NCBI GenBank assembly: GCA_964554805.1
Contig: CAZKPX010000003.1
Location: forward strand, 76,366 to 140,365
Direction: 5' to 3'
Source: an uncultured Candidatus Saccharibacteria bacterium
GTDB lineage: Bacteria; Patescibacteriota; CAZHWT01
DNA length: 64,000 bases
The notes under the pieces were generated by a model. The model searched no databases. It was given only the letters and a program-made list of their open reading frames with translations, and had not been told where the DNA came from. Below are positions 45,810 through 63,503 of this stretch, piece after piece (position 1 is the stretch's first letter; the number at the start of each line of letters is the position of its first letter). A program made the position numbers and the translations under genes.

Positions 45810-47429
45810 ATGAAGCGATCCCGGATTGGCTTGGTTGTGGTTGGTAGTTTGATTTTGAATACTATGCTTATGCTCCAACCTGCTGGAATACAGGAGGTTG
45901 AGGCGGCGTTTTCTGGGTATAACGGGAGAATAGCTTTTGAGACTAATCGTGACGGCAATAGTGAAATATATATGATGAATGAGGATGGCTCAGATCCTAG
46001 GAGGCTAACGAATAACTCATCGATGGATACTGCTCCAACATGGTCTCCGGATGGGAGCAAGATAGCGTTTGTCTCTAACCGAGATGGTAGTAACGAAATT
46101 TATGTAATGGATTCTGATGGGAGTAATCAGCAGAGGCTGACCAGTGATGCATATAGCAATAGTTCTCCTTCTTGGTCTCCAAGCGGGGATAGGGTAGCTT
46201 TTACTTCAAATGCCGAAGGCGGTAGTCAGATTTTTACTATTGATACTAATGGGAATGGGCGCAGTCAGATTACAAGTGGTCCTGCAAGTAAATACAATAT
46301 CTCGTGGCATCCAGGCGGGCAGTCATTAATTTATCAAGGATCTCTCGCAGGTAATAATGACGTATGGACTGTGAGTATAGGCGATAGTCTTGAAGAGAAT
46401 ATTACCAATACTCCCAGCTCAGGTGAGCAGATTCCTAGATGGAGTCCTGATGGACAAAGAATTGTATTTACTTCCAACAGGGATGGGAATAATGAAATAT
46501 ACACAATGAACGCAGATGGAGGTGATTGGGTTCGTATTACGAATGATCCAGCAAATGATAACGGTGCTTACTGGTCCCCTGATGGAAATAAGATTGTATA
46601 TCACACTGATATCCCAAACCTTAATCTTGATAAGAACATCGTAGTCAGCAATTCTAGTGGTACTACAAAGGAAATTACAACAACTAATCCCACCAACGAC
46701 TTAAATCCTCAATGGCAACCCATCCCCAATACCTCACCAGTCCTAGCTGCTGCGGCCCTATCTGTTCAATCTGGCTCTGCTCAGAGTGTTGATGTTTTAA
46801 CGGGTGCGACTGATGAGGAGGCCCTGGAGGCTGCCAATGTAAGCCTTGTCAGTCAACCTGCCTATGGCACGGCTGGTGTTGAGTTGGGCAAGGTTGTGTA
46901 CACTGCTAGCACCGCCTATGTCGGTTCGGATAGTCTGCAATACCAGGTCTGCGATTCGTTTATGCTGGATCAGAAATGTTCGACTCAAACACTTGGCATT
47001 ACAGTGACTCCTTGGTTGAGTTTGAAGGAAGTCGGTACTGTCGCGACTGATGGTTCGGGTAAAGTCATCTCCCCTTCTAGCAAGCCAACCTTTTCTGGCT
47101 ATACGACTCCCCTGGCTGAAGTGAAAGTTGAAATTCATTCAGATCCAATCATTCTGACTACTCAGGCTAATGGCGATGGCTACTGGTCTGTTACCCCTAC
47201 CTCTCCTCTACCCTCAGGCGATCATACTGTTTATATCTCCTCAACACTCAATGGTCAGACAACCCAGCTAGATTCGTTTGTCTTGAGTGTTCAGACAACG
47301 ACCCCTAATACTGGTGCCGATTACACTCTTGTGCGAGGGGTGGGGGCGGGTCTGGTTGGTCTAGGGGCTCTCATCTTAGCCGCAGCATTAAGACGCCGAG
47401 GGCCTAAGGTGTCCCCTCTATCTCTATAA
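45810..47429 (+). CDS. Paralogous secreted PD40/TolB-like beta-propeller surface protein with TPNTG C-terminal sorting signal
   Basis: Same architecture as 44153-45772. The C-terminal 150 aa are near-identical (FSGYTTPLAEVKVEIHSDPIILTT...LNGQTTQLDSFVL). Start set at MKRSRIG. Confidence 0.6.
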   Translation: MKRSRIGLVVVGSLILNTMLMLQPAGIQEVEAAFSGYNGRIAFETNRDGNSEIYMMNEDGSDPRRLTNNSSMDTAPTWSPDGSKIAFVSNRDGSNEIYVMDSDGSNQQRLTSDAYSNSSPSWSPSGDRVAFTSNAEGGSQIFTIDTNGNGRSQITSGPASKYNISWHPGGQSLIYQGSLAGNNDVWTVSIGDSLEENITNTPSSGEQIPRWSPDGQRIVFTSNRDGNNEIYTMNADGGDWVRITNDPANDNGAYWSPDGNKIVYHTDIPNLNLDKNIVVSNSSGTTKEITTTNPTNDLNPQWQPIPNTSPVLAAAALSVQSGSAQSVDVLTGATDEEALEAANVSLVSQPAYGTAGVELGKVVYTASTAYVGSDSLQYQVCDSFMLDQKCSTQTLGITVTPWLSLKEVGTVATDGSGKVISPSSKPTFSGYTTPLAEVKVEIHSDPIILTTQANGDGYWSVTPTSPLPSGDHTVYISSTLNGQTTQLDSFVLSVQTTTPNTGADYTLVRGVGAGLVGLGALILAAALRRRGPKVSPLSL

Positions 47430-47584
47430 TACTCAGCCTATAATATCGCTATTATGATAGTAATAATTCAGGGTTGAACCCTGAGGTTAGCTTTTGTGTC
47501 GTTTTAGGTAATGGCAAATTCAGCCTATGATGAGTTCAGGCTGGCTTGACTCATGCCTGCCTGTTTGGGTAGAATGAGGCATAG

Positions 47585-50053
47585 ATGCGGTTATTTTTGA
47601 ATTCATTTGATATTGGCCATTTTGGTACCAGGCAGTTTCTGGTGGCTGTTTTGCTTAGCCTTATGATGGTGAGTGGTTTGCTGGCTTTGCCGGTTGCTCA
47701 AGCGGACTACTCTACTCCGGACGCGACTTTGAAATGGAGCACTTTGGATGTCCCGGGGGGAGATGTGTCTCGAGCCTGGTCAACAGCTGCCTCTTCGGCA
47801 GATGGTTCGGTTTTGCTCGTTGGTTATAATGGCGCTTACTCCATGCATCGCTCGATTGATAGTGGTCTAACCTGGACGGAGGTTGGACCGGCTGTCACTT
47901 ATGGCACCTTTCCTTGGCGCAGCTTTGCCATGTCGGCTGATGGTCAGGTAATGCTGGCGGGTGATGCGTATCGCCTGTACCTCTCTTCTGATATGGGCGA
48001 TAATTGGACTGAGGCAAGACCGGTTGGAGATGTCAATCTTCATTGGGGGAATGTAGCCATGTCGGCTGATGGCCAGGTAATGTTGGCAAGCGTTAATGAT
48101 GTCGGTGGCCGGTTGTATTATTCGACTAACCAAGGCCAGGACTGGCAAGAAGTTCAGCCGGCTGGTGATGTTGATCGATACTGGCGAGGTTTGGCTGTGT
48201 CAGCTGATGGCCAGGTGATGCTGGCTGGCGCCTCGGGCGGTCGGTTGTATCGGTCGGTTGACGGCGGGGACAGTTGGGTTGAGATGCAGCCAGCGGGTAA
48301 CGTTAATAGATTTTGGTTGACTACCTCTATGTCGGCTGATGGTCAGGTAATGTTGGCTGGGTCTGTAGCCGCCACAGGTCGGTTGTATCGGTCGGTTAAC
48401 GGCGGGGATAGTTGGGTTGAGATGCAGCCAGCAGGTGACGTTAATGTTAGCTGGTGTCGCAGTCGGGTATCTGCCAATGGTCAATCTATGCATATAAGCT
48501 ATGGTTGTGACAGTGGTGGGGGTCGGTTGTATCGGTCGGTTGATAGTGGAGGTAGTTGGCTCGAGATGACTCCGATCGATGGTGGCGCTTATATGTGGAT
48601 GGCTATAGCCGCTAGCGATGATCAGCAGACAATAATAGCTGGTGTGTCTTTTGGTCATGTATATCTTTCGCATAATAGTGGCCAAACCTGGTTGAAGATC
48701 AGGCCATATGGCCAGCATGGTAATGACTGGAGATCCTTGGCAGTATCTGACAATGCCCGGGTGCTATTTGCCGGCTCAACTGGTGGCGGTGGCAGTGGGC
48801 GACTCTATCGTTCTATTGATAGAGGCGTTGCGTGGGCTGAGGTTCGGCCGGCTGGTGACGTTGGTGCAAATTGGAGTGATGTAGCATTGTCGGCTGATGG
48901 TCAAACTGTACTGGCTGTTGCATCGGGCAAAAGACTATATCGATCACAGGATGGCGGCAATAGCTGGGCGGAAGTGCGTCCAATAGGTAATGTTGACGCT
49001 GCTTGGTGGCGTGCAGCTATGTCAGCTGACGGGCAGATTTTGTTTGCCAGTGTTTCTGGTGGTCGACTATATCGCTCGCTGGATGGAGGTGATTCGTGGA
49101 CTGAAATTCAGCCGGCCGGTAATGCTAACTATGCGTGGCAGCAACTGGCGACTTCGACAGATGGCCAGGTTGTTTTTGCAGGTGTCTTTGCCGGACGCAT
49201 TTATAAAAGTGGTAATACGGGAGATAGCTGGACTGAAGTTCAGCCGGCCGGTGATGTTAATATTTACTGGGTAGATCAAGGAGTGAGTTTGTCGGCTGAT
49301 GGTCAGCGTGTTTTTGCTGTAGGTGGCGGTCACGTGTATCGCTCTGTGGATGGTGGCAATGTATGGGCTGAAGTGCAGCTGTCGGGTACCTGGTGGTCGA
49401 CTGTATCGCAATCCAGGGATGGGCTGCGGGTACTCTTGGGGTCGTTTCCGGGGCGATTGTATGGCTCGACAGATGGAGGTGACAATTGGTCTGAAGTAAC
49501 GCCAATAGGTGATAAATTGGGGCTCTGGCAGCTAGTCCGACTGGCCTCGGATGGTAAGAAGATAGTTGCGGCGGCCAGCATGGGGCGGGTTTATTTGGGC
49601 ACTTTGACGCCGACGGCCCCTGGCTTGACTATAGCGGCCAATACGGTATTTGATCCCACTCAGTCTGCCTCAAGTACCGCTTTGACCGGCACAGCGCCGG
49701 TTGGAGCGACCGTGGAGGTTGAAGTGCACTCGACGCCACAATCCGGGGTGGTGACGGCTGACGGGAGTGGCCATTGGTCATGGTCTCCGCCGCTGCCGCT
49801 GGAGCCGGGAAGCCATCAGTACAGAGCTCGGATTTTGGATGACGATATTGAGGGCGATTGGAGCGATTGGGTGAGTTTTCAGGTTCTAGGAGTGACGGAT
49901 TCCGGTGATGAGTCATCTATCCCCAATACCGGAGTAGACTATTGGTGGTGGAGAGTTGGCGGTTTACTTGTGTTTGCGGCTGGCTTGAGCTTGCTTGGGT
50001 ATGTTCGCAAGTATAGGCGCTTTCCTTTGGTGCCGGACCTGTTCCCACGGTAG
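47585..50053 (+). CDS. Secreted BNR/Asp-box-repeat (Ycf48/sialidase-like beta-propeller) surface protein with IPNTG C-terminal sorting signal
   Basis: About 14 repeats of (R)LY(R)SxDGGxSW(T/A)E spaced roughly 45 aa apart. Signal peptide with AQA. C-terminus SSIPNTGVDYWWWRVGGLLVFAAGLSLLGYVRKYRRFPLVPDLFPR. Confidence 0.65.
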   Translation: MRLFLNSFDIGHFGTRQFLVAVLLSLMMVSGLLALPVAQADYSTPDATLKWSTLDVPGGDVSRAWSTAASSADGSVLLVGYNGAYSMHRSIDSGLTWTEVGPAVTYGTFPWRSFAMSADGQVMLAGDAYRLYLSSDMGDNWTEARPVGDVNLHWGNVAMSADGQVMLASVNDVGGRLYYSTNQGQDWQEVQPAGDVDRYWRGLAVSADGQVMLAGASGGRLYRSVDGGDSWVEMQPAGNVNRFWLTTSMSADGQVMLAGSVAATGRLYRSVNGGDSWVEMQPAGDVNVSWCRSRVSANGQSMHISYGCDSGGGRLYRSVDSGGSWLEMTPIDGGAYMWMAIAASDDQQTIIAGVSFGHVYLSHNSGQTWLKIRPYGQHGNDWRSLAVSDNARVLFAGSTGGGGSGRLYRSIDRGVAWAEVRPAGDVGANWSDVALSADGQTVLAVASGKRLYRSQDGGNSWAEVRPIGNVDAAWWRAAMSADGQILFASVSGGRLYRSLDGGDSWTEIQPAGNANYAWQQLATSTDGQVVFAGVFAGRIYKSGNTGDSWTEVQPAGDVNIYWVDQGVSLSADGQRVFAVGGGHVYRSVDGGNVWAEVQLSGTWWSTVSQSRDGLRVLLGSFPGRLYGSTDGGDNWSEVTPIGDKLGLWQLVRLASDGKKIVAAASMGRVYLGTLTPTAPGLTIAANTVFDPTQSASSTALTGTAPVGATVEVEVHSTPQSGVVTADGSGHWSWSPPLPLEPGSHQYRARILDDDIEGDWSDWVSFQVLGVTDSGDESSIPNTGVDYWWWRVGGLLVFAAGLSLLGYVRKYRRFPLVPDLFPR

Positions 50054-50267
50054 GTTTAGGATTTAGTCTGAAGCTGAATACCCTGTGCTCTAAGCCATAA
50101 GTCCTCATCCCTCTGCCGGTTTAAAATTGCTCCAGCTTGGTTTGACCGCAGGTCTGAACATTAGGTATAAATCTTCGCGATTAATGCAAGCTCCGAGAGC
50201 ATTAGTCTTGGAGCTTGTTATGGTTGGTTGTTGTTTACCAATACTGCACTACTCTGCTACAATAACT

Positions 50268-50507
50268 TGTATGTCTGAAAATACTGAAAAAAACTCAAAC
50301 CACTGGCAGGAATTGGCTGATACCCCAGTGCTTCGCTCAACAGAAAAAGCTCAGCCGGTCGAGATGAAAGTCAAACTGACTCATGGAGTGTGGTTTGGGA
50401 CGGCTATGGGGATTGGTTTTGCCATCGGTTTTCTGGTGTCCTTCCTGATTCTGGTGGGTATTGTCGGTTTCTTTGTTTACTCACGCTTCCCTGGTTTATT
50501 TAGCTAG
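50268..50507 (+). CDS. Small tail-anchored membrane protein (hypothetical)
   Basis: 79 aa from the internal ATG. Single C-terminal TM (FGTAMGIGFAIGFLVSFLILVGIVGFFVY). No SD, so weak. Confidence 0.3.
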   Translation, partial: CMSENTEKNSNHWQELADTPVLRSTEKAQPVEMKVKLTHGVWFGTAMGIGFAIGFLVSFLILVGIVGFFVYSRFPGLFS

Positions 50508-50536
50508 AACTATACTGACCTGAAACCTGTTATGGT

Positions 50537-52513
50537 TTGGCGGTTGGTCCTGCCAATTTTTTTATGTCTCTTCGATTTATTATCTCAAGCTTGGTGGCCG
50601 TTGCAGCTGTTGGTTGTGCGGCTTTTGGTTTAGTTACTATTTCTAAAGCAGTTGAAGTGGCAGGTGAACATACCTTTGCTTCCTCTACTCTGCCTGATTT
50701 GGATAGCTCGCCGACTCAGACAACCAAGATTTATGATAAATCCGGGGATTTATTGTACGAAGTAGGAAGTGTCTATCGTCGAATTATTGAGATTGATCAG
50801 GTGCCGGACCGGGTTAGGGACGCCTTTTTGGCGGCTGAGGATAGAACTTTTTATACAAATCCAGGCTTTTCTATTCGCAGTTTGATTCGGGCAGCCAGTA
50901 CTGATTTGCGACATGATGAATTGCGCCAAGGCGGATCGACTATTACTCAGCAGTTAGCTCAGATGTTGGTAGTGTCAAAAGATAATACTGTTGAACGAAA
51001 AATCCGAGAGATTGTGGTGTCGGTTATGTTGACCAAGCAATACTCTAAAGAGGATATTCTGGAGCGCTATTTGAATGAGGTGCCGGTGGGTGGAGAGTTG
51101 GTAGGAATTGGGACGGCGGCTGAATTATATTTTGGGACATCAGTCGATGAATTGAGTATCGCTCAGGGTGCTTATTTGGCGGCCATGATCAATGCGCCTG
51201 GTATTCTTGACCCGTACCTCAATCCGGAAGGGCTGCAGTCTCGCCAGCAATTGGTTATTGATCGAATGGCCGGTTTTGGTTTTATTGATGAAGCTACTCG
51301 AGATCAGGCTAAGGCTGAAGAGGTGGTCTTTTCTCCTCGAAAGACTGTCCTCAAATACCCTTTCTATTCATTGTATGTCAGGCGGGTTTTGGAGGAGCAG
51401 TATGGTCGGGATGTGCTTGATCAAGGCTTAACGGTCCATACCAGTCTGGATGCTAATTTGCAGGCTCAGGCTGAACAGATTATCGCTGAAAAAGTGGAAG
51501 CCAATGCTAAAACTTGGCAGGCAGACAATGTCTCTCTGATTGCGGTTGAGCCGACATCAGGGCAGATTGTGGCCTATGTCGGCGGGGCGGACTTTAACAC
51601 CTCGCAGGTTGATGTCAACTCCTCTTTGCGGCAACCAGGTAGTACTATTAAGCCGCTCATTTATTATTCGGCTTTTGAGCAGGGCTATAATCAGGACACT
51701 ATGGTTTTGGATATGGTTGAAGACTTTGGCGGCGGTTGGAGACCAACTAATTATGGGGGCGGATCGAGCGGTCGATATGTCAGCTTGAGAGCGGCTTTGT
51801 CGTCATCTCTTAATATTCCGGCAGTCAGAGTGTTGCGCGGGGTGGGGATTCCGGTCGCTATTAATAATTTGATGCAGATGGGGTATCCGATTAAGTCTAA
51901 TTATAACTATACTTTGCCTTTGGCTTTGGGTTCTGAAGAAGCTCGGCCGCTCGATATGGCTCAGGCTTTTTCAGTGCTGGCTAATGGTGGTCGGCAGGTT
52001 AAGGTTTCGCCGCTGCTCAAGGTGGTTGACCGGCATGGTGAAGTATTGCTTGATCGCAGCGGGACTAGTTCGGGACGGCAAATCTTGGATGCCAATGCGG
52101 TGGCTATGACTACCAGTATTATCTCTGACTATACCTTAAAACGCCAAACCTACGCCGGTGATTATTATAAACACTACACTTTGGCTGATCGCCCGGCTGC
52201 TGCCAAAACTGGTACGTCTTCAGGGCCCAAAGATGCTTGGACAATTGGCTATACACCGCAGTTGTTGGCGGCTGTCTGGACTGGTAATACTTCCGGCAAA
52301 GATTTGGCTAGTCGAGCTGATGGTATCAATGTAGCGGCTCCTATTTGGCATGATTTTATGACCTATGCCCACCTTGCCCTGCCAGTTGAAAAGTTTGTGG
52401 AGGTCAAGCGAGTACCGCCTGATCCGCTGTATAAATATATAGATAAAAAACCTCGCGGCTATGTTGAGCCAACACCGACGGTCATTGAATCGTCGGGTAG
52501 TGCGGTGCGGTGA
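50537..52513 (+). CDS. Class A penicillin-binding protein (bifunctional glycosyltransferase GT51 plus transpeptidase)
   Basis: GT51 motifs EDRTFYTNPG and GGSTITQQLAQ. TPase motifs PGSTIKP (SxxK), SSLN (SxN) and KTGTS. N-terminal TM. Confidence 0.9.
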   Translation: MAVGPANFFMSLRFIISSLVAVAAVGCAAFGLVTISKAVEVAGEHTFASSTLPDLDSSPTQTTKIYDKSGDLLYEVGSVYRRIIEIDQVPDRVRDAFLAAEDRTFYTNPGFSIRSLIRAASTDLRHDELRQGGSTITQQLAQMLVVSKDNTVERKIREIVVSVMLTKQYSKEDILERYLNEVPVGGELVGIGTAAELYFGTSVDELSIAQGAYLAAMINAPGILDPYLNPEGLQSRQQLVIDRMAGFGFIDEATRDQAKAEEVVFSPRKTVLKYPFYSLYVRRVLEEQYGRDVLDQGLTVHTSLDANLQAQAEQIIAEKVEANAKTWQADNVSLIAVEPTSGQIVAYVGGADFNTSQVDVNSSLRQPGSTIKPLIYYSAFEQGYNQDTMVLDMVEDFGGGWRPTNYGGGSSGRYVSLRAALSSSLNIPAVRVLRGVGIPVAINNLMQMGYPIKSNYNYTLPLALGSEEARPLDMAQAFSVLANGGRQVKVSPLLKVVDRHGEVLLDRSGTSSGRQILDANAVAMTTSIISDYTLKRQTYAGDYYKHYTLADRPAAAKTGTSSGPKDAWTIGYTPQLLAAVWTGNTSGKDLASRADGINVAAPIWHDFMTYAHLALPVEKFVEVKRVPPDPLYKYIDKKPRGYVEPTPTVIESSGSAVR

Positions 52514-52586
52514 GGGAAGGTAGATTTTTTATGTTCAATATTCTATATTCAATCTCCCATATCCGCGCCTTGGCGCTGGGGTTAAT

Positions 52587-53225
52587 GTGATTTGGCCGAC
52601 TTTAGACTACGAAAAACAAATAGCTAGGCAGGGTTTTGAGGTGGTAGCTGGTATAGATGAAGTAGGGCGCGGGGCTTGGGCGGGGCCGGTGGTGGCTGGG
52701 GCTATGGTTTTGCCGGCTGGATTGGGGTTGTATCAGGCTGACCTGGTTGAATCTGAGTGTTTACCACGGTGGTTGCGGGATTCTAAATCTTTGACTCATC
52801 AGCAACGGCTGGAGACGGCTGGTCAGTTGAAGAAATTGACTGACGATTGGGCTATTGGTCAGGCGGAGGTGGAAGAAATTGACGGGCTGGGGATTGGTCG
52901 GGCCACTTTTTTGGCTATGGAGCGGGCGGTAGCCGGGTTAAAAATTGAAGTCGAATACTTGTTGGTTGACGGTTCGGCTCATCCTGCCTGGGCGGCAGAT
53001 AAACAGCTGGCTATGGCTAAGGGTGACGCTAAATCAGCCACCATTGCGGCGGCTTCGATTCTGGCCAAGGTCTATCGAGACCAGTTGATGGACGAATTGG
53101 CGATTCAGTGTCCGGAATATGGCTTTGAGACGCACAAGGGTTATGGCACAGCTCAACATCGGCAGGCTATTGCTGAACATGGTCTATTGCCTGTCCACCG
53201 GACGAGCTTTAAGATTTTAAAGTAG
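52587..53225 (+). CDS. rnhB: Ribonuclease HII
   Basis: GIDEVGRGAWAGPVV (catalytic Asp/Glu), DSKSLTHQQR, 212 aa. Confidence 0.85.
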   Translation: MIWPTLDYEKQIARQGFEVVAGIDEVGRGAWAGPVVAGAMVLPAGLGLYQADLVESECLPRWLRDSKSLTHQQRLETAGQLKKLTDDWAIGQAEVEEIDGLGIGRATFLAMERAVAGLKIEVEYLLVDGSAHPAWAADKQLAMAKGDAKSATIAAASILAKVYRDQLMDELAIQCPEYGFETHKGYGTAQHRQAIAEHGLLPVHRTSFKILK

Positions 53226-53257
53226 CCTCCGCCTCGGCTTGCTGGACTGCTATCAGA

Positions 53258-54757
53258 TTAGAGCATGGGTAATGGTTTGGTCGAAGCGTTTCTGGCCATT
53301 TGATGATAAGCTTGATTGTCTATTTGTGGTGGCGACCAGTCTACCAGCTCCTGAGGAGAAATCGGTCTGCCAAGCCAAGCAGTAGCCTGTTCTTGGTCAT
53401 GCAGCAGTTCGTAGGCTTGACCATTTTTGAATACAATCATAGGTAGGCCAAAGAACTGGGCTGTTTCGGCTATGTTTTGCATGGTTATGGACCTCAGATT
53501 ATCCCGTTCGGCTAATCCGCGTTGCCAGAGGATATCGGTCATGGCGATAGACTGGTCTTGATTTAGGTTAACCATAGGAGCTTGGTCGAGATTGACAAAA
53601 GTCGCTGCAACCCGTGTTTGGCTGACTATGACTTCGTTGTATCTCTGTTTTGATCCCTGGGCTAGAGCTGCTGATAGTCTCTGCTGATATTCTTCAACTG
53701 ACCCAACACTGGTCGTCCTTCGATTCTCTTGGGTGGCTTGACTGCCTTTGTCGAAAGCGGCTGCATCCTCGATTGTTCCGCTGTTGAGAACCAGGCCGAA
53801 ATTATCCCACAGCTGAATCCGACTGTCGCCCGAACCTGGTCGGAAGGTTGAGGCGCAGATAGAAGGGTTTTGGGTCAAGAGGTAGGCTATTCTTTCCTGG
53901 TAGCTACTTTGATTATTGATATTCTGGTTGTTGCCGAAACCAATATCGAATTCTGGTTTGACTGCATGGACTATATAGTGACCGTTGGCTAGAACAAGAG
54001 ACTCCAGGCTGCCGTGAGCCTGTTTGTACTCTTCAAGCTGATGGCGGTTGTATTGTTTTTTCTGATCGACTTTCCAACCAAGCGCAATCTGTTGATAGTA
54101 TTGGTCGAGATAGGCTTGGCTATCAGCGTAAAATGATTGCTGGTTAGCTTTAATTCTCTGTAATTCTTCATGATAGTAGGCGGTTCTATACAATTCTTGC
54201 TTGATGCCCGCTTGATGTTCTAGGGTGCTGGCTTGTTTTTGTGATTCGGCCAGGGCTTGCCGGTGTTCTTCGATAGGAAAATTACGGAACTTGTCCATTA
54301 TCCGCTTGACCAGGCTGGTTTCATGGTCTTGAATGAGATTGCTGATCTCGGCGGCTTGCTGCTCATATGCCAGCTTTTCGTTTCGGATAGTCTCCAGAGT
54401 ATCTCTATCCTGTTGTGACTGGCTCTGTATGCTCTGCTCGCGCCTGCGATCTTGAGCTCTGTCTCTGCGCATCGTTTGCAGCCTTTGGGCTACGTCATTA
54501 CGAGAAACTGGGCCAGCATAGACGCCTTGGTACAGGCTATCCTGCTCTTTAGAGAACTGGCGCAGCTGGTTTTTGGAAGGTTTAGGGATAGAATGTTGCG
54601 ATTCGCGATTCATGATGAAGTAAGTGCGTTTTAAGTTTAGCATGCCAACCGAGTCGGAGTCAGTTGTTGCTGTGCTTTTTGACAGACTGATATAAATTTG
54701 GGTAGTTATGACCTGCTTCTTTGTTGCCAAGTAGGGGCAACAGAAGTACAATGACAC
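53258..54757 (-). CDS. Hypothetical Gln-rich protein
   Basis: Long ORF with coiled-coil-like Q/E/R-rich middle section. No motif recognised. Start probably at an internal Met (MLNLKRTYF or MNRESQH). Confidence 0.35.
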   Translation of the reverse strand: MSLYFCCPYLATKKQVITTQIYISLSKSTATTDSDSVGMLNLKRTYFIMNRESQHSIPKPSKNQLRQFSKEQDSLYQGVYAGPVSRNDVAQRLQTMRRDRAQDRRREQSIQSQSQQDRDTLETIRNEKLAYEQQAAEISNLIQDHETSLVKRIMDKFRNFPIEEHRQALAESQKQASTLEHQAGIKQELYRTAYYHEELQRIKANQQSFYADSQAYLDQYYQQIALGWKVDQKKQYNRHQLEEYKQAHGSLESLVLANGHYIVHAVKPEFDIGFGNNQNINNQSSYQERIAYLLTQNPSICASTFRPGSGDSRIQLWDNFGLVLNSGTIEDAAAFDKGSQATQENRRTTSVGSVEEYQQRLSAALAQGSKQRYNEVIVSQTRVAATFVNLDQAPMVNLNQDQSIAMTDILWQRGLAERDNLRSITMQNIAETAQFFGLPMIVFKNGQAYELLHDQEQATAWLGRPISPQELVDWSPPQIDNQAYHQMARNASTKPLPML

Positions 54758-54848
54758 TGGTACGTTGTCGGTCGTCTGTTGTCAGTGGTCTGCTGATTTT
54801 TTGGCTGATCACCGATAACCGTCAACGAACAACCGTTAACTATCTCAT

Positions 54849-57491
54849 ATGTCTGCCCTTTCTTATTTAATCCATCTTCCGCAGTGGTGGTATATCGATC
54901 GTACAAAATGGTGGTCTCGATTTGCCAGCCGTAGCTTGCTGCTGCTATCAGATAGGCTGGCTGTTGCTCCGCAATTTCAAGCCCTATTTGCCCCCTATCA
55001 CAATGACACAACTATCGTCGGCCGATCCATTGGTTTTGCCATGAGATTGTTATGGTTGGTGTTGGGAGTAGTTGTTTTGTTGGCTGCAGTGTTGGTTTTA
55101 GTGGTTGGTTTTAGTGGTTGGTTGTTGATGCCAATTGGACTGATTTGGGGTGTGATTTGGGGCCAGTGGTGGTTGCTATTGGGGCTGCTTGCTACTTCGG
55201 CTAGCTTGGCTGTCTATTGGTTTGGCTATGCCTTGCAACCAAAGTACATCTTAGCGGATCTGATTAATCCTGAGACTAATCAGTTTGATTTGCCGGTGGC
55301 TCAGGATTTGCGTGAGTATGCTTCAGGGGCAGCGCGGTCTATTTTGAAAGATTTGCCGCCACAGTTCTCGACAGGAATTATAATGCGAGCCTTGGCTAAT
55401 GATGCTGATGTTTTGCGGTTGTGTAAGCGCATGGAACTGTCTGACCAGCCATTGCTTGCTCGAATTAGCCAGCAGTCATCGCGCCAAAGCCAGGTGGTGT
55501 CGGAACAAGTCTTTATTGGGCAGGCTATTCAGCGCGGCCTAGATCATCACCACCGTCATTTAACCACTTCTGATCTATTTTTGGCCTTGATCGCCAGCAG
55601 TGATTTGATGCAAAAGATCTTGTCTGAGCTGGGCGTTCAGTTGGATGAGTTGGATAAGGCGGTAGCTTGGGTGGAGGCTGAGCAGCGTCAGCGGGGACGT
55701 TGGAAGTGGTGGACAGATGAGCATTTCCGTCGCTTGGGCGGTGTTGATCGAGGTTGGGTTAGTGGCTGGACGCCCACGGCTCGCCGTTTTTCTCTTGATA
55801 TCACCAATGAAGTATCGTCGGGGCGTGTGCCGTATATTATTGGTCGAGACAAAGAGATTGGTCAGGTGATGCGGATACTGGAACGCTCAACCAAGAGTAA
55901 TGTGCTGTTATTGGGAGAGCCCGGTGTGGGCAAGAGCTCGATAGTGGATGGTATTGCGCAGGCTATTTTGCAAGCTCAGGTATCCCCTGCTCTGGCTGAG
56001 TCGAGGGTTATTGAATTGGATGTGACTGGCATGTTGTCGAGCATTGGTGCGGGTCAAGATTTTCAAACGGTTTTTAGTAAGGTTTTACAAGAATTGACTG
56101 CTGCCAGAACAATTTTGTTTATCGATGCTATCGAGCACCTAGTGGATCAAAGCGGTTTGGGAACGGTTAATGCCAGCGCGGTTTTGGAGCCATTTTTGGA
56201 ATCCGGTCAGTTAAAGGTAGTGGGCTCAACGACCTTGGCTGCCTATCATCGCATCTTGCAGCCCCAGGCTGCTTTGGCCCAACATTTTCAACCCGTGGCA
56301 ATCGAAGAGCCGTCAGTTGAGGCTGCTACGGCCATTGTTCAGGAATTTGCCGCTACTATTGAGCAGGACCAGAAGGTTCAGATTAGCCTGCCCGCTATCT
56401 CGGCCACAGTTGAATTGGCTCAGCGCTATATTCATGATCGAGTTCTGCCTGAAAAAGCTATTGATTTGTTGGATGAGGTGGCTGCGGAGGTAAGTCGAAA
56501 CAAAAAAGATCAGGTGACAGCTGAAGATGTGGCGCGGGTGGTGTCGGACAAGACAGGTATTCCAGTCGATACCGTGACCGAGTCTGAGGCAGCCAAACTG
56601 AATAATTTGGAGGAGTTGTTGCAAAAGCGGGTGGTTGGTCAGGAAGAGGCGGTGGAGGCAGTGGCCAATGCTTTGCGTCGTTCTCGGGCTGGTCTCGCTG
56701 ATGAGTCAAAGCCGATTGCGGTATTGATGTTTGTCGGTCCAACCGGGACTGGTAAAACAGAATTGGCCAAAACGGTAGCTGAGAGTTATTTTGGATCGGA
56801 ATCGGCTATGATTCGACTGGACATGAGCGAATATCAGACGGCTGACAGTTTGCATAAGCTAATCGGTCCTCCACCCGGCCAAGCGGATTTTGAGCTAGGC
56901 GGGCAATTGACTACAGCTATTCAGGATAATCCATACACTGTTCTGCTGCTGGACGAGCTAGAGAAGGCCAATCCACGTATTTTGGACGTTTTTTTGCAGG
57001 TATTTGATGATGGTCATTTGACTGACAGCGCCGGTAGGCGGACTTTGTTTAACCACACAGTTATTATTTGTACCTCTAATGCCGGATCCCGGTCGATTCA
57101 ATCGGCTCTGCAGCAAGGGTATACTTTGCAACAAATGGCGCCGGCTATTAAAGAGATGTTGGCTCAAAAATATTTCCGTCCCGAGTTCTTGAATCGGTTT
57201 GATGATGTTGTTGTCTTTAAGCCGTTGGCCGAGAGTCAGATATTGCAGATAACACGCAAGATGATCCAAGAGGTAATATCTGGGCTGGCTGCGAAAAATA
57301 TTACGGTTACCATTAGCGATGACTTGGTGGCCGCTATTGCCAAGGCTGGCTATGATCCGCTGTATGGAGCTCGGCCATTGCGACATGTTATTCAGGATAA
57401 GCTGGAAAATGCGCTGGCCAAACAGCTGCTGTCCGGTGAAGTCAAGGCGGGCTCGGTGGTGGAACTAAATACTTCGAATGTGTCTGTTTGA
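54849..57491 (+). CDS. Clp/Hsp100-family double-ring AAA+ ATPase with an N-terminal transmembrane segment and no long M-domain
   Basis: Two Clp_N-like repeats. NBD1 Walker A LLGEPGVGKSSIV. NBD2 Walker A FVGPTGTGKTELAK. Sensor-2 GARPLRHVIQ. Residues 60-130 are strongly hydrophobic (2-3 TM). No IGF/LGF tripeptide seen. Confidence 0.7.
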   Translation: MSALSYLIHLPQWWYIDRTKWWSRFASRSLLLLSDRLAVAPQFQALFAPYHNDTTIVGRSIGFAMRLLWLVLGVVVLLAAVLVLVVGFSGWLLMPIGLIWGVIWGQWWLLLGLLATSASLAVYWFGYALQPKYILADLINPETNQFDLPVAQDLREYASGAARSILKDLPPQFSTGIIMRALANDADVLRLCKRMELSDQPLLARISQQSSRQSQVVSEQVFIGQAIQRGLDHHHRHLTTSDLFLALIASSDLMQKILSELGVQLDELDKAVAWVEAEQRQRGRWKWWTDEHFRRLGGVDRGWVSGWTPTARRFSLDITNEVSSGRVPYIIGRDKEIGQVMRILERSTKSNVLLLGEPGVGKSSIVDGIAQAILQAQVSPALAESRVIELDVTGMLSSIGAGQDFQTVFSKVLQELTAARTILFIDAIEHLVDQSGLGTVNASAVLEPFLESGQLKVVGSTTLAAYHRILQPQAALAQHFQPVAIEEPSVEAATAIVQEFAATIEQDQKVQISLPAISATVELAQRYIHDRVLPEKAIDLLDEVAAEVSRNKKDQVTAEDVARVVSDKTGIPVDTVTESEAAKLNNLEELLQKRVVGQEEAVEAVANALRRSRAGLADESKPIAVLMFVGPTGTGKTELAKTVAESYFGSESAMIRLDMSEYQTADSLHKLIGPPPGQADFELGGQLTTAIQDNPYTVLLLDELEKANPRILDVFLQVFDDGHLTDSAGRRTLFNHTVIICTSNAGSRSIQSALQQGYTLQQMAPAIKEMLAQKYFRPEFLNRFDDVVVFKPLAESQILQITRKMIQEVISGLAAKNITVTISDDLVAAIAKAGYDPLYGARPLRHVIQDKLENALAKQLLSGEVKAGSVVELNTSNVSV

Positions 57492-57497
57492 GGCTGA

Positions 57498-58391
57498 TTG
57501 GATATGGTAAGGTCATCTAGTTTTGATATTCACCAAGAGCTAGGCTCATATGGCTTGGAAGACCAGGCTTGGGCCAACGAGTTGCCGGAGGCGATACGGG
57601 AGTTGTATGACCCAACCTGGGCTGGATTGCAAGCTGAGGAGGATAGTTATAACTACGATGATTTGCGAGTAATCCTGGATAATATACGGCGAGGCTTGGG
57701 TTATGGCATCTATAGCCAAGCCAAGCCAGATCAATCAGATGAGATTTACCAGAAAATAGATAGGTTGGAGCAGGCTTTGCTTGAGGCTGAGCAGGAGTCG
57801 CTAGGTGGTTTGGATGAGCTGGGGATACATATGAGCTATCAGCATAGCAATTGTCAGGAATTTGGGATTGATAGTCGTTTTCTAGGTTCACCGCAAAGAG
57901 CTGAATTGGCCTGGTTGAGGTATTTTGTTGGCCAGACAAGTGCTAATTATCAGCTGACTATGCAGCTTTTGATGGATATTTATCAGCTGGACAATCCGAC
58001 CTTTACTGATGATATAAAGCAAAAAATGATAGATCGGGGCTATGATAAACCGCAATTTAGCTTATATGGCCGACAGGCAGCCGTGGATTTTTTGGATGAG
58101 CAGGGCTTTGGTAGCGGGGATATTCAGGGTAACTTTTTGATTAATTTTAATCTGCCCAAGCCATTGGGTAGAATGTGGTATCGGGGTGGTAGTGAAGATC
58201 CTTCGTATGAGATACCGGAAGATTCTATTGCTTGGGGATATTTTTATAGAAATTGTATGTCGGCTATGTATAGTGCCCAGTATTCGGCTGAGAGGCAAGG
58301 GTATTTCTTTGATAGAATTAATGCCATGGGTCAGCATGACTGGAGGCAGTATTATTATTTGTACGTATTGATTGGCAGGGCTCAATCTTGA
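57498..58391 (+). CDS. Hypothetical protein, 7 nt downstream of the Clp-like gene
   Basis: 297 aa, Tyr/Gln/Asp-rich, no motif recognised. Confidence 0.35.
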   Translation: MDMVRSSSFDIHQELGSYGLEDQAWANELPEAIRELYDPTWAGLQAEEDSYNYDDLRVILDNIRRGLGYGIYSQAKPDQSDEIYQKIDRLEQALLEAEQESLGGLDELGIHMSYQHSNCQEFGIDSRFLGSPQRAELAWLRYFVGQTSANYQLTMQLLMDIYQLDNPTFTDDIKQKMIDRGYDKPQFSLYGRQAAVDFLDEQGFGSGDIQGNFLINFNLPKPLGRMWYRGGSEDPSYEIPEDSIAWGYFYRNCMSAMYSAQYSAERQGYFFDRINAMGQHDWRQYYYLYVLIGRAQS

Positions 58392-58559
58392 TCGCTGGTC
58401 GGGAGGGGTTGTTTTTCCCAGTAGCGGTTGCTGGCTTCTCTCTAGTGTTGTATGCTGTAGTTATCATTAGATAGTTCCTGTTCTTGGTGTATGCTGCCTT
58501 CCTTCTCCCGACTACCTTTTAGTTTAATTTCCCTGCCCGATTCAAAGCATATGCGCTAC

Positions 58560-58570
58560 GGGGGGGGGGG
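58560..58570 (+). repeat. G11 homopolymeric tract in the translation-initiation region of the giant Cys-repeat protein
   Basis: atgcgctac followed by 11 G, then tgcttctcggcc. The ATG at 58551 is in frame 0, the long ORF in frame 1. One additional G, or a loss of two G, would fuse the ATG to the ORF. Confidence 0.8.
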
Positions 58571-61500
58571 TGCTTCTCGGCCTGGTTTTTCTTGGACTGC
58601 TTGGTTTTGTCTGGTTGTCTAGTGTGTCTCCGACTATTTCTCTGACTAAAACTGTTTTTCTGGCTTCGGAGTCTGTAACGGCTGTGATGGCCCATGCCTC
58701 TGCTGATAGACTGAAGGCTGAGGTGGTGACCAGTGATGGGGATAAGACGGGCCTGGCGGTTGAGGTGACGGCCTCTGGCTCGGATGCTCTGTTGACGATT
58801 CCGGCTTTGCGGGCGTTGACCCCGGGTGGGTATGTGCTAAAGGTGACGGATGCTGCTGGCCGCCAGTATAGTCAGGATTTCTCTTGGGGTGTTTTGGCGC
58901 TCAATATGACCAAGTCGGTGTATGCTTCCGGAGAGACGGTTGAGGTGCAGATGGCGGTTTTGAATCAGCGCGGGGCGATGGTGTGTGATGCTGAGGTCAG
59001 GCTGGTTATTACCTCGCCGACCGGCAAGAGTCAAACGCTTTCGACAACCGAGGATCGCATAAAGGTTAATCCATCCTGCACAGTTAAAGATTTTACTGAG
59101 GAGCCTGATTATGAGGCTTCGTTTGAGGTGGCGGAGCCGGGGCGCTATGATTTGAAGTTGACGGCGGTGACGGCTGATGATTCATTTACCATTACTGATA
59201 CTTTGACGGTTCAGCAGCCAGTTGCCGATCCGCTGATTATTACCCGACAGTCGGCCACCCGCATTTATCCGGTTAATACCTATCCGGTTCATATGACGGT
59301 GACAACCACTGAGGATTTTAACGGAACTATTACCGAGACAGTCCCCTACTCTTTTGAGATTTCACCATTGGAGGAGACTGTCTCTTATTCGTACGAACAG
59401 TTTAACCGTAAGGGCGCAGTTAACGAACAATACAAGCAGCTGCACTGGCAGGATGTGTCACTAAAAAAAGGTCAGTCTATAACCCTAGGCTACCAGTATG
59501 ACGCGCCCAATGAGTCGCCTAATTTCTTTCTAGCCGGACCACTGAGTGCTACCACCTCCGACCTCCAATCTCCTGCCTCCTATTTCACCGAACCCCGCTC
59601 CTGGCAAATAGCCGTCGACGCTGTGCTGACGGCTATTGAGCAGCAGATTACTATTACGAATCAAGCCTACCAAACCAACTCCCAATCCCCTGCGCCGACG
59701 GATAATTCATTGGGGTTGGTGCAGTGGGATGAAGCTGCTTATTCTAATGCGGAGGTGTATTTGGAGGCTAGGCTTGGACAGCAGCAGTCCGCTCCTTATA
59801 TGGGGGATATAACCAGTCATGCGACCATGGATTGTCCAGCGGCTGATGATTGTAAGATTGCTTATTATGATGCTGTGGGAGGAGATCTGCGATTTAGGGA
59901 TTGTGACGATGCTGTCTGCTCGACTGGAACGATAGTACTGCTTGATGGTAATGTGGGGTGCGTCATGGCCAATTGTTCCACCATAGCCAATGTGGGGCAG
60001 TTTGCTTCTATAGATTGTCCAGCGGCTGATGATTGTAAGATTGCTTATTATGATACAACCAATCAGGATTTGCGCTTTATTGATTGCAATGATGGGACTT
60101 GCTCGACGGGGACTAATGCATTGCTGGACGGTCGGGCAGGGTGTGTGTTGACTGGGTGTGCCGCTTCGGGGGATAGGGGGGCTGGCGTTTCTATCGACTG
60201 CGTTGCCTCTAGTGACTGCAAGATAGCTTACCAGGATACAACCTCAACGGCGCTGCGTTTTGCTGACTGTAATACAGCTGGCTGTAGTTCGGGTGTGGTG
60301 TCGTTGTTGGATGGTGTTGCTGGGTGTGTGTTGACTGGGTGTGCCACACTTGGTTCAAGTGGCCAGTATCAGTCGATTCGTTGTCTGGCCACAGATGACT
60401 GTAAGATTGCTTACTATAGCGCAACCCTTCAGCATCTCCGCTTTGCCGATTGTGATACCGCCAACTGTAGTGCTGGTACGGTGGTAGAAATAGATGGATC
60501 TGCAGGATGTGTGTTGGAAGGATGTTTGACTAACAATATTGGAATGTATGTTTCGATGGATTGTTTGGCTACCGATGACTGTAAGATTGCTTATTATGAT
60601 ACTACTGGATCTGATCTGAGATTTGCTGATTGTGATACTGCAACCTGTTCTTCCGGCTTTTCGACATTGATTGATGGAGGGGCTGGATGTGTTCTTTCGG
60701 GATGCGTAAACACAAATACCCTGGGTCGGTATCCAGATATCAGCTGTGTTGCTAGTGACGATTGCAAGATCAGCTATGGTCATTATAGTAGCTTCTTGTT
60801 TACTTATAGCACGCTACTATTTGCTGACTGCGATACTTCCAGTTGCTCGTCTGGCTCTGTCTCAATTTTGGATAATCGAGGATCGTGCGTTTTGACCGGG
60901 TGCAATCCCAGCACCACAGGCTCGCAGGCAACTAATAGTTCGATCATCTGTATGGCTAGCGATGATTGCAAAGTGAGTTACACTAACCCCCACTTCGACA
61001 GTCTCCATTTTGCTGACTGTAGCGCGGCTAATTGCTCATCCGGACAGACGACTTTGGTGGATGGAGCATATAAGCCATTCATGCTCGGGCGACCAAGTAT
61101 GAGCTGCCCCCAGTCGGATAACTGCAAGATTATTTACCTTACGAATTCAAAAAGGGACGGCTCAGAGCGCTTGCTGAAATTTAAGGATTGTGATGATGTT
61201 CAATGTGATACTGGAACAATCGTGGTTCTGGACGGTGCAATGAGTTGCATGTTAGATAATTGTTCTGATAGCCGGAGAGTTGGTCAGAATATGTCTTTAG
61301 ACTGTCCTAGCTCTGCTAATTGCAAAATTACTTACTATGATGAGACTAACATGGAATTACGATTTGTCAATTGTAACGGTGAGGTTTGTGGGGCAGGAGC
61401 GACAATCTTGATTGACGGTGGCCCTGACTGCGCCTTGGCTAATTGTGTGTCTGGTCAAGATATTGGTGATTTCCCTGCGCTTGATTGCCCGACTGCAGAT

Positions 61501-63447
61501 AACTGCAAGGTTGCTTATTATCAGCGAACACCTAACGGCGGTCTACGTTTTGCCGATTGTGACAATGCTGACTGTTCGGCTGGCACAGTTAGTGTGTTGG
61601 ATGGGCAAGCTGCTTGTGCATTAACCGGCTGCCTTGCTGTAAGATCTCCTGGTGCTTTCAAATCTATATCTTGTCCTGCTGCAGACGATTGCAAGATTGC
61701 ATACCATAGCAATAATGATTCTGCTCTCTATTTTGCCGACTGCGACGATGAGGCTTGCTCGAGCGGTACAGTGGCTCTGCTGGATGGTGCTGCATCCTGT
61801 TCTCTCAGTGACTGCACTGAGTCTTTGGATGTAAGAGAGGCTATTTCTATGGATTGCCTGGTGAGTGACGATTGTAAGATTGCCTACCATGATTATGGCA
61901 ATAGTGATTTGCGTTTTATTGATTGCAACAACGCAACTTGCTCTATTGGATCATCTACCTTATTGGATGGTAGGTCGGGCTGTGTTTTAACAGGCTGTAA
62001 TCCTAGTGGATCAAACGGTCTTTCACACTCTATTAGTTGCTTGTCTACAGATGATTGTAAAATTAGCTACTACAGCACAACGAGCCAACATCTGCGTTTT
62101 GCTGATTGTAATAATGCTGATTGTTCTACAGGTACGGTTAGTTTGTTAGATGGGTTCGCAAACTGTACGCTTTCAGGCTGCTCATCATCAAATGATGGCC
62201 AATTTTCTTCGGCCTTAGATTGTTCGCTAGCGACTGATTGTAAGATTGCCTATACTTCAAGTACTGTGTTGCGCTTTGCTGACTGCGACAGTGCGGGTTG
62301 CACTTCCGGGTCGATGGCAACTGCAGATCGGGGCTACCCACTTTCTTGGCTCCAGCTTTATTCTACAGCTGGAGTGGCGATTCCGGATGCTATCGTCAGC
62401 AAGGAAATTACTATAAGTGGCTTGACTGCTAGCGAGCCCCCGATGCGCTTAAAGAGTCATAGCTTAAGCTTGACTGACGCGACTGCTTATACTGTTAGAG
62501 CCTGGACATCGACTCCGGGCTTAACAACCGCTATTCACTCCGCCAAACTAATCGTCAAGCAAAATAACGGTGGTGGGATTACGGCTACGCAGACTATGGT
62601 GGAGGTGGGGGCGCATCAGGTGCAGACGGGGACGAATGGGTGGGGAATGTTGGATTCGCCTAAGATGTATTATTATAATCCGGCTAATTTTTCGGGAACG
62701 GTAGCGGTTTATTTTGAGGCTACTTTGGGGGCGGCAGTCTCTAATTCTTACGCGGCTTTGTCCAGTGATCCAACCTGCGCCAGCCGAGTGGCTGGGTCGG
62801 AGGTCAGTTATTCGACTATGGACTTTGCCTGGGTGTTACGGCGGTCATCGGCTTTAACCTTGCCAGCAGGACAATATCATGTCTGCATGAGCGGAGCAGG
62901 AGTGGCCAATGGAGTGGCCAATGCTAAGCTGATTATTGCTACGACTGGATCTTTGGACAAAACGCAAACGGTTCAACAATTGGTTGTTGCAGCGACTGAA
63001 GATAATGATGCTGCTTACACCCCGCACTCTAATTTGGTCTATCTGGATAAATCTAATTATGCCGGAGATGATTCGTACTATTATCTGGAATCGGTTATGA
63101 AAACATCTTCTGGCACCGGATCGGTTCAGCTCTATAATGAATCCGATTCCGCTATTGTTGATGATTCAGAGTTGACGACTACCTCAAGTGTTTTTGAAAG
63201 AGTCTTCAGTCAGGACCTGGAGGCTGATTTAGCAACCGCCAAGAATTATCAGCTACGACTCAAGGGTGGGTCTAGCAACACAGTCTCCGTGTCCTCAGCC
63301 TGGCTGGTAGTGCAGGTCAGTCTTAATGGAGCTTACCAGGAAGGCTCTTTGCCGCCGCCAGTGACTGGGCCCTCAATGAGTCAGCTGATGAAGAATGGTT
63401 TGTGGTGGAAGGACGGGGTTAAGCAGCCGTATTGGTTGGGGGAGTGA
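58570..63447 (+). CDS. Giant secreted/anchored protein: N-terminal signal/TM, Ig-like region, 14 tandem ~60 aa six-cysteine repeats, C-terminal roughly 350 aa domain
   Basis: Repeat consensus DCxxxDDCKIAYYDxxxxDLRFADCDxAxCSxGTxxLLDGxAGCVLTGC. Start drawn at GTG 58570, which depends on the G-tract state. Confidence 0.6.
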   Translation: MLLGLVFLGLLGFVWLSSVSPTISLTKTVFLASESVTAVMAHASADRLKAEVVTSDGDKTGLAVEVTASGSDALLTIPALRALTPGGYVLKVTDAAGRQYSQDFSWGVLALNMTKSVYASGETVEVQMAVLNQRGAMVCDAEVRLVITSPTGKSQTLSTTEDRIKVNPSCTVKDFTEEPDYEASFEVAEPGRYDLKLTAVTADDSFTITDTLTVQQPVADPLIITRQSATRIYPVNTYPVHMTVTTTEDFNGTITETVPYSFEISPLEETVSYSYEQFNRKGAVNEQYKQLHWQDVSLKKGQSITLGYQYDAPNESPNFFLAGPLSATTSDLQSPASYFTEPRSWQIAVDAVLTAIEQQITITNQAYQTNSQSPAPTDNSLGLVQWDEAAYSNAEVYLEARLGQQQSAPYMGDITSHATMDCPAADDCKIAYYDAVGGDLRFRDCDDAVCSTGTIVLLDGNVGCVMANCSTIANVGQFASIDCPAADDCKIAYYDTTNQDLRFIDCNDGTCSTGTNALLDGRAGCVLTGCAASGDRGAGVSIDCVASSDCKIAYQDTTSTALRFADCNTAGCSSGVVSLLDGVAGCVLTGCATLGSSGQYQSIRCLATDDCKIAYYSATLQHLRFADCDTANCSAGTVVEIDGSAGCVLEGCLTNNIGMYVSMDCLATDDCKIAYYDTTGSDLRFADCDTATCSSGFSTLIDGGAGCVLSGCVNTNTLGRYPDISCVASDDCKISYGHYSSFLFTYSTLLFADCDTSSCSSGSVSILDNRGSCVLTGCNPSTTGSQATNSSIICMASDDCKVSYTNPHFDSLHFADCSAANCSSGQTTLVDGAYKPFMLGRPSMSCPQSDNCKIIYLTNSKRDGSERLLKFKDCDDVQCDTGTIVVLDGAMSCMLDNCSDSRRVGQNMSLDCPSSANCKITYYDETNMELRFVNCNGEVCGAGATILIDGGPDCALANCVSGQDIGDFPALDCPTADNCKVAYYQRTPNGGLRFADCDNADCSAGTVSVLDGQAACALTGCLAVRSPGAFKSISCPAADDCKIAYHSNNDSALYFADCDDEACSSGTVALLDGAASCSLSDCTESLDVREAISMDCLVSDDCKIAYHDYGNSDLRFIDCNNATCSIGSSTLLDGRSGCVLTGCNPSGSNGLSHSISCLSTDDCKISYYSTTSQHLRFADCNNADCSTGTVSLLDGFANCTLSGCSSSNDGQFSSALDCSLATDCKIAYTSSTVLRFADCDSAGCTSGSMATADRGYPLSWLQLYSTAGVAIPDAIVSKEITISGLTASEPPMRLKSHSLSLTDATAYTVRAWTSTPGLTTAIHSAKLIVKQNNGGGITATQTMVEVGAHQVQTGTNGWGMLDSPKMYYYNPANFSGTVAVYFEATLGAAVSNSYAALSSDPTCASRVAGSEVSYSTMDFAWVLRRSSALTLPAGQYHVCMSGAGVANGVANAKLIIATTGSLDKTQTVQQLVVAATEDNDAAYTPHSNLVYLDKSNYAGDDSYYYLESVMKTSSGTGSVQLYNESDSAIVDDSELTTTSSVFERVFSQDLEADLATAKNYQLRLKGGSSNTVSVSSAWLVVQVSLNGAYQEGSLPPPVTGPSMSQLMKNGLWWKDGVKQPYWLGE

Positions 63448-63503
63448 GGGGGAGTGAGGGGAGTGAGTGAACAGTGAACAGTGAACAGTGAGGAGTGAGT
63501 GGC
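63440..63503. repeat. Purine-rich (GTGAGGGGA / GTGAACAG)n tract after the stop codon
   Basis: gggggagtgagggggagtgaggggagtgagtgaacagtgaacagtgaacagtgaggagtgagtgg. Confidence 0.75.

Follow-up and report, generated by a model that had tools for sequence, protein, structure and literature searches.

Can a run of identical bases at the start of a gene act as a switch for a giant surface protein in a bacterium of the Candidate Phyla Radiation (CPR)? This question is raised by a locus on a 64,000-nucleotide stretch of DNA from an uncultured Candidatus Saccharibacteria bacterium (contig CAZKPX010000003.1 of assembly GCA_964554805.1, positions 76,366 to 140,365), which we call the window. Here, a homopolymer of 11 G (G11; 58560–58570, + strand) stands between an ATG codon and the longest open reading frame (ORF) of the window, which encodes a giant, cysteine-rich protein with a hydrophobic N-terminus. 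Our analysis suggests a plausible, unproven contingency locus, weakened by an alternative start codon that does not depend on the tract. We put the probability that this is an ATG-started, slippage-switched tract in the coding region of a signal anchor at roughly one half, a figure that includes the sub-case of a modal tract length of G10 that the assembly overstates by one base.

The tract and its reading frames

In the window sequence, an ATG (58551–58553) is followed by CGC TAC, by the 11 G of the candidate slippage tract and then by TGCTTCTC. At this tract length, the frame opened by the ATG (58551–58622, + strand) encodes MRYGGGGASRPGFSWTAWFCLVV and ends after 23 codons at a TAG (58620–58622). 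The giant ORF (58570–63447, + strand; 1625 codons) has, as assembled, a GTG (58570–58572, + strand) as its sole start codon. Upstream, its frame is closed by a TAA (58525–58527, + strand), and the 14 open codons between this TAA and the GTG include no ATG, GTG or TTG. The GTG takes its first base from the end of the tract and the other two from the TG that follows, and hence it exists whatever the length of the tract. A sequence-only reading of this DNA had drawn attention to the G11, to the ATG at 58551 and to an ORF of 1625 codons that could be entered from the GTG alone, and had placed all of them correctly; its early end for the ATG frame also holds, at 23 codons rather than the approximately 25 that it gave. 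A second ATG lies further upstream (58491–58493, + strand) in the same frame as the ATG at 58551. The intergenic region 5' of the latter (58392–58550, + strand) is bordered and partly occupied by two terminator-like hairpins of the upstream gene (58386–58404 and 58418–58434), and no consensus promoter was found in it.

To follow the frames, we rebuilt the gene in silico with 6 to 16 G. The ATG at 58551 enters the long ORF at G7, G10, G13 and G16, with products of 1630–1633 residues, and the remaining tract lengths between 6 and 15 give only peptides of 22–32 residues. The product at G10 (MRYGGGVLLGLVFLGLLGFVWL..., 1631 residues) has the N-terminus MRYGGGVLLGL, in which MRYGGG is followed by VLLGLVFLGLLGFVWL; that at G13 (MRYGGGGVLLGL...) has 1632 residues. 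At either of these two lengths, a start at the ATG at 58491 would place MLPSFSRLPFSLISLPDSKH ahead of MRY. The sequence-only reading had expected 12 or 9 G to restore the full frame. Its frame arithmetic was off by one: G12 and G9 lead to peptides of 31 and 30 residues, and the correct lengths are 10, 13 and 7. From the assembled G11, the fused state is reached by one deletion or by two insertions. Contingency loci are recognised, among other properties, by a G/C homopolymer of at least ~7–8 in the 5' part of a reading frame and by repeat gain or loss that shifts the start in and out of the full-length frame. At this locus, the G11 lies 9 nt past the start of the ATG, and in the rebuilt gene changes in tract length move the ATG in and out of the long ORF.

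These observations suggest a mechanism in which translation would normally begin at the ATG at 58551, or possibly at that at 58491, and the product would consist of MRY, a variable number of glycines encoded by the tract, and the hydrophobic anchor VLLGLVFLGLLGFVWL. As the DNA is replicated, slipped-strand mispairing in the run of 11 G would alter the tract length. Lengths of G10, G13 or G7 would join the ATG to the 1625-codon, lectin-like surface protein (ON), and at G11 or G12 the ATG frame would run out after 23 or 31 codons (OFF, or strongly reduced). On this view, the assembly with its G11 either captured the OFF state or overcounted the run by one base. The number of glycines between the charged and the hydrophobic parts of a signal sequence should tolerate change. 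The tract, its frames, the nature of the protein and the N-terminal pattern of the homologues are observed, and the use of the ATG, the variation of tract length in the population and the switching role are inferred.

The giant protein

The protein begins with a hydrophobic signal-anchor segment, (V/M)LLGLVFLGLLGFVWL, encoded at 58570–58617 (+ strand). This anchor is followed by a domain of ~400 residues, by 14 tandem repeats of ~61 residues with six cysteines each (59824–62319, + strand), and by a C-terminal domain of ~380 residues; in all, the ORF encodes 84 cysteines. The repeats share the consensus ..DCxxxxDCKIAYYDxxxxxLRFADCxxxxCSxGTxxLLDGxxGCxLxxC.., and sequence searches of Pfam and the PDB with the giant protein, including the repeat region, returned nothing above threshold. 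An AlphaFold2 model of repeats 1–7, for which homologues were used as alignment, reached a predicted local distance difference test score of 89.6 and a predicted template modelling score of 0.90, with four strands per repeat; in it, the seven repeats form the seven four-stranded blades of a closed beta-propeller.

The best Foldseek matches of this model are the seven-bladed beta-propeller lectins PHL and PLL of Photorhabdus (E 2e-10; template modelling score 0.60–0.76). The predicted fold is like that of PHL and PLL, whereas the sequence, at 7–9% identity, does not place the repeats in their family, and the build differs as well, with six-cysteine blades of ~61 residues, 14 of which sit inside an anchored protein of 1625 residues. 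The structural match suggests a carbohydrate-binding, surface-exposed role. Since the propeller model is confident and its structural matches are lectins, the gene most likely encodes an anchored, disulfide-rich surface or attachment protein with two lectin-like propellers.

The rest of the protein points in the same direction. The ~400-residue domain is common to many giant surface proteins of CPR and DPANN organisms, and homologues that bear it frequently have M23 peptidase, MG2, laminin-G-like or other extracellular-type domains as well. The assignment as a surface protein, made before from sequence, is therefore upheld by the hydrophobic anchor, by the extracellular-type domains of the homologues and by the lectin-like model. 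Homologues of the giant protein were found in Patescibacteria and DPANN assemblies, and the Tgt protein of the window shares at most 54% identity with named proteins, found in Patescibacteria, Woykebacteria and Levybacteria metagenome-assembled genomes, and 68–78% with unnamed relatives. The protein under the proposed control is of the kind that is usually phase-varied: giant, extracellular, with a lectin-like beta-propeller, in an episymbiont lineage. Its 4.9-kb ORF is unbroken, so the gene is not an old pseudogene.

The repeats and the family have features of their own. The 61-residue six-cysteine repeat is widespread in giant proteins of the CPR and is without a Pfam family or a solved relative by sequence. 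Inside the giant ORF, a 42-nt sequence is repeated exactly and directly (59830–59871 and 60013–60054) at a spacing of 183 nt, equal to one 61-residue unit. The DNA of the remaining units has diverged, and the 42-nt repeat points to a duplication or gene conversion that took place recently between adjacent blades. On the contig of the closest homologue (L150), two genes (3–863 and 866–5911) are arranged such that the stop of the upstream gene is 2 nt from the start of the next, and the C-terminal motif of the upstream gene product, ...GRWFNNGVLQPFTF, matches the type found in giant proteins (...GLWWKDGVKQPYWLGE in the window and ...KYFDCNLVLKPFTF in P0125). Giant proteins of this type thus occur in tandem and have a conserved C-terminal tail in common.

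Start codon, length and rarity of the tract

The N-termini of the homologues argue for the ATG. Of 49 non-redundant homologues whose first 120 residues include a clear hydrophobic anchor, 46 have a net positive charge within the 12 residues before that anchor; other exported proteins of the window likewise begin with M and then R or K. The ATG-fused product, MRY-GGG-VLLGLVFLGLLGFVWL, has the positive charge followed by a hydrophobic core that is typical of a Sec-type signal, while the GTG product, MLLGLVFLG..., carries no charged residue ahead of the anchor and lacks the charged N-region of such a signal. The signal peptide seen by the sequence-only reading consequently stands in its layout for the ATG-fused product. 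A start at the ATG at 58491 would add a cytoplasmic segment of 26 residues that is collinear with the one found at the N-terminus of P0124, the closest homologue. Homology between the peptide upstream of the tract and the N-terminus of P0124 was considered and set aside as not significant, since 577 of 5000 shuffles score as well.

Several observations weigh against the switch, and those on translation initiation come first. The ATG at 58551 has no Shine-Dalgarno pairing (-0.1 kcal/mol), whereas the GTG at 58570 has a strong one (-10.9 kcal/mol against CACCUCCUUA), a strength that just one other scored start surpasses (window median -4.05); this pairing is supplied by the 10 G ahead of the GTG. 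All of these energies use the canonical anti-Shine-Dalgarno tail, which may not be that of this organism's own 16S rRNA. The GTG had been taken for a poor fallback start, a view that does not survive this comparison, and weak pairing is also no rarity at ATG starts, as it is shared by 7 of the window's 28 other ATG genes. Nor is it unusual for an ATG to lie by chance a few codons upstream in one frame or another. With a Shine-Dalgarno mimic and a GTG present at every tract length, the OFF state may be leaky, and the switch would then not be a true ON/OFF switch.

Taken one step further, these points lead to an account in which the GTG is the real start and the G run is a Shine-Dalgarno mimic in the 5' untranslated region. 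The protein would then be made at all tract lengths, without ON and OFF states, and slippage would at most tune initiation or make a short overlapping upstream ORF. In addition to the pairing, a database copy of the protein (P0123; 1625 residues, 100% identical) begins at the GTG, long homopolymers are best tolerated outside coding sequence, and the homologues lack the tract. However, the GTG would yield a product that is uncharged before its anchor, in contrast to almost all of the homologues counted above; some five G suffice for Shine-Dalgarno function, not 11; and the run abuts the start codon without a fixed spacer. On balance, we regard a GTG start without switching as the strongest rival to the switch, though rather unlikely.

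The switch further presupposes that the tract varies in length. Two public read sets contain the organism (SRR16798008 and SRR16798009); the literature was searched for these run numbers and returned nothing. In their Logan assemblies (k=31), contig SRR16798008_160931 spans 47216–58548 and contig SRR16798009_1690536 spans 56919–58551; both are 100% identical to the window over the overlap, and both end 8–11 nt to the left of the tract. Because both short-read assemblies stop just before the tract, it safely follows that short reads struggle at it and that the count of 11 is insecure to within one base. The same two assemblies also both break within a perfect 42-nt palindrome at 5696–5737, so that breaks which coincide point to real obstacles in the sequence. 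On the opposing side, a simple G10/G11 polymorphism would branch the assembly graph at ~58569 and not 8–11 nt earlier. Systematic read errors at the run would account for this displacement of the contig ends no less well, and another variant may also be its cause.

Protein, N-terminal and flank searches also found no assembly or read set with another tract length. Neither the window translation of the giant protein nor P0123 had an exact match in the assembly index; the 42-nt exact repeat inside the gene means that k=31 assemblies yield no protein for it. A search with the N-terminal 375 residues returned two distant proteins only and no near-identical fragment, and therefore no catalogued assembly crosses the tract. 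Among metagenome contigs of the Joint Genome Institute (JGI), the exact flanks with 5–20 free bases between them had 0 matches.

The breaks before the tract could also be read as a sign of an assembly artefact, a false contig join made through low-complexity sequence or poly-G read tails, in which case the flanks would not be adjacent in the genome. That both k=31 assemblies end before the tract, with none found that crosses it, agrees with such a join. However, a run of 11 G is much too short to link contigs at the k-mer sizes in common use, and the flanks form one coherent gene start, with ATG-Arg-Tyr on the left, the anchor on the right and the homologous domain directly after it. The database, moreover, holds the identical 1625-residue protein on a 165-kb contig, and we consider an artefactual join very improbable.

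An invertible element or a shared 5' cassette was considered as the cause of the contig breaks, and no repeats or inverted repeats were found. The 42-nt palindrome (ATAACCTCCGAGGTTCGCTAGCTAGCGAACCTCGGAGGTTAT) lies downstream of a protease gene (4353–5657) and is probably a bidirectional terminator. The SRR16798008 assembly has a further break of 89 nt (47127–47215), at a place where the window has no repeat, inside the second of two tandem paralogous secreted proteins (539 and 545 residues; 44153–47429) that both carry MKRSRIGLVVVGSLILN... near the start; this break could stem from strain variation. The paralogue pair follows a gene of the phage integrase family (43081–44073) and 1.5 kb without long ORFs (41559–43081).

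Comparison with related loci likewise gives no support to the switch. A scan of GTDB genome contigs with the single protein found no relatives, and profile-based scans yielded 144 loci, all at 44% identity or less, which form a family background without an orthologue. P0124, the closest homologue at 44% identity and with its domains in the same order, starts with MIHSRLTASKDWISDHAQ, followed by the anchor, and its DNA has no G run at the start. In the 134 related loci with a complete 5' region, this region contains no G/C run longer than 7, and the sole 5' homopolymers are one C7 and one A9 in lysine codons. The comparison with related loci that the sequence-only reading had proposed has accordingly turned up no comparable tract, either in P0124 or in the 134 loci, none of which is orthologous. 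Within the genome itself, a second G/C run of at least 8 is absent from the window, from the 5.8 kb on its left side and from the short-read contigs that overlap it, which leaves one such tract in the about 70 kb seen of the genome. Tracts of established contingency loci are conserved in orthologues and occur at several loci per genome; neither property was found here, within ~70 kb and among homologues of at most 44% identity. With no true orthologue (>44% identity) in the collections, the result on conservation counts as weak negative evidence. The A9 mentioned above (L091:1209–1217) lies in the lysine codons of a signal peptide N-region (MKKKYFKK) and could be slippage-prone, or mere codon usage in an AT-rich genome.

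How unusual the tract is depends on the yardstick. No other homopolymer in the window exceeds 7 bases: after the G11, the longest G run is one G7 (11992–11998), and C runs reach no more than 5. Dinucleotide-preserving shuffles contain on average 0.07 G11 per window, with at least one G11 in 6 of 100 shuffles. By composition alone, the tract is a moderate outlier and its excess is modest, because the + strand is very G-rich. GC skew on this strand is positive in every 2-kb bin of the window (1–64000; +0.07 to +0.37), also where genes lie on the minus strand (7550–11974), and so strong a skew raises the chance expectation of G runs on the + strand. Measured against real sequence, 1.23 Mb from the 144 related CPR/DPANN loci contain 5 G/C runs of at least 8 and none longer than 10; genomes of this kind, to judge from these loci, avoid long G/C runs.

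Both yardsticks bear on the possibility of a neutral, incidental expansion in a G-skewed, repeat-rich genome, with the gene either intact at a true G10 or recently frameshifted, and with slippage that takes place without being an evolved switch. Such an expansion would be in keeping with the skew and the many short G-rich tandem arrays of the window, with the frequency of G11 in shuffled windows and with the failure to find another tract or conservation; a one-base count error is credible too, given that two short-read assemblies fail just ahead of the tract. However, other runs end at a length of 7 in the window and of 10 in the related loci, and at the longest ORF of the window the tract falls exactly between start codon and anchor, for a random event a small target that we estimate at ~2% of intergenic or 5' positions. 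We hold neutral expansion to be distinctly unlikely.

The tandem arrays have a period of 7 (also 13–14) and are scattered over the window, mostly G-rich and most of them intergenic (392–461, 7143–7178, 9937–9964, 10001–10023, 10900–10960, 18965–19051, 19194–19220, 28564–28590, 31986–32016 and 63438–63498; motifs GACGGGC, GAGCGAC, GGCGACG, GCGACGA, AAGCGAC, AGTGAAC and GGAGGTT). Some occur in the 5' part of ORFs, such as GCGACGA x3.9 at 28564–28590 inside the ORF at 28534–29292, and two straddle or come after the stop of the giant ORF. The arrays resemble the heptamer repeat families known from some cyanobacteria. Elsewhere, in two unrelated Patescibacteria genomes, a G9 or G10 run is followed by the motif TA[AG]CGTCCTTC (L012:1455–1463 and L024:79–88); there is no tRNA at these sites, and their flanks otherwise align poorly.

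The frame could, finally, be corrected in expression from a G11 that is fixed in the genome, either by RNA polymerase slippage or by a +1 shift of the ribosome on GGG codons, so that a fraction of the product would be full length from the ATG. The identical bases of the run permit perfect re-pairing, and the shift needed is a single base. However, the transcriptional slippage sites that are known are, to our knowledge, A/T runs; no stimulatory element was seen, and the local RNA fold is no stabler than that of shuffled sequence (z = +1.15). Correction at this level strikes us as extremely improbable.

Known switches and the CPR way of life

Among known systems, the closest in layout is pilC of Neisseria gonorrhoeae, in which a homo-guanine tract lies in the signal-peptide region and frameshifts switch the gene on and off (PMC5354566). 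The locus described here shares the homo-guanine run in the signal-peptide coding part of a gene for a surface or adhesion protein. Unlike pilC, for which switching is experimental and which belongs to a genome with many such loci, our candidate is known from sequence alone; its host is an uncultured environmental CPR bacterium, the GTG with its G-run Shine-Dalgarno mimic could bypass the switch, and the proteins are unrelated. In Campylobacter jejuni, extending a tract from G8 to G11 made it 10-fold more mutable, with deletions becoming the predominant change (PMC3401435); under such a bias, a deletion at our locus would turn G11 into the ON length G10.

The C. jejuni phasome also consists of G/C tracts of 8–11 within the reading frames of surface-structure genes. 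Strain NCTC11168 has 29 loci, about one tract per 55–60 kb (PMC4965091), and a density of this order is compatible with one tract in the 64 kb of the window. In C. jejuni, however, the set of tracts is conserved across strains while their lengths vary, whereas no tract-bearing orthologue was found for ours.

Two further systems are instructive by their differences. In Listeria monocytogenes inlA, a frameshift in a 5' poly-A tract reduces the product to a very short peptide and can revert at high frequency (PMC2831843). The position of a homopolymer near the 5' end of a surface protein gene is the same here, but the inlA tract is poly-A and shorter, and the general 5' enrichment reported for prokaryotic genes is one of A/T tracts, not of G tracts. 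Within the CPR, a hypervariable gene with PTD repeats in a Gracilibacterium was fragmented in short-read assembly and has been discussed as slippage-prone (PMC6851277); there, in-frame 9-nt repeats change the length of the protein, in contrast to a frameshifting homopolymer at the start of the gene.

Seen next to these systems, the switch proposed by the sequence-only reading retains its classical layout, with a G tract in the signal-peptide coding part and the full frame one slip away, and gives up its ON lengths. At the level of sequence, the tract, its position and its frame logic are those of a contingency locus; conservation and the presence of multiple loci are where, within the sequence covered, the likeness fails.

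Full-text literature searches found no paper linking Patescibacteria with phase-variable genes, and none among the results for Candidate Phyla Radiation or Saccharibacteria. The mechanism itself is textbook, and what would be new, if real, is its occurrence in this lineage. That an uncultured, non-pathogenic CPR episymbiont switches a giant, lectin-like attachment protein by a poly-G contingency tract is a tentative proposal, with the odds leaning against it, and its general significance is moderate, as it concerns one locus and a textbook mechanism.

CPR bacteria presumably spend their lives attached to host cells, with their giant cysteine-rich surface proteins as leading candidates for making contact. 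If the proposal is true, this would be the first homopolymer phase-variation locus described in the CPR radiation, and the stochastic switching of host-contact proteins would seem to belong to life as an episymbiont. CPR organisms would then vary their surface stochastically, as mucosal pathogens do, with a bearing on host range and on the evasion of phage and host defence, and surface genes that look "frameshifted" or oddly started in metagenome-assembled genomes may be switch states.

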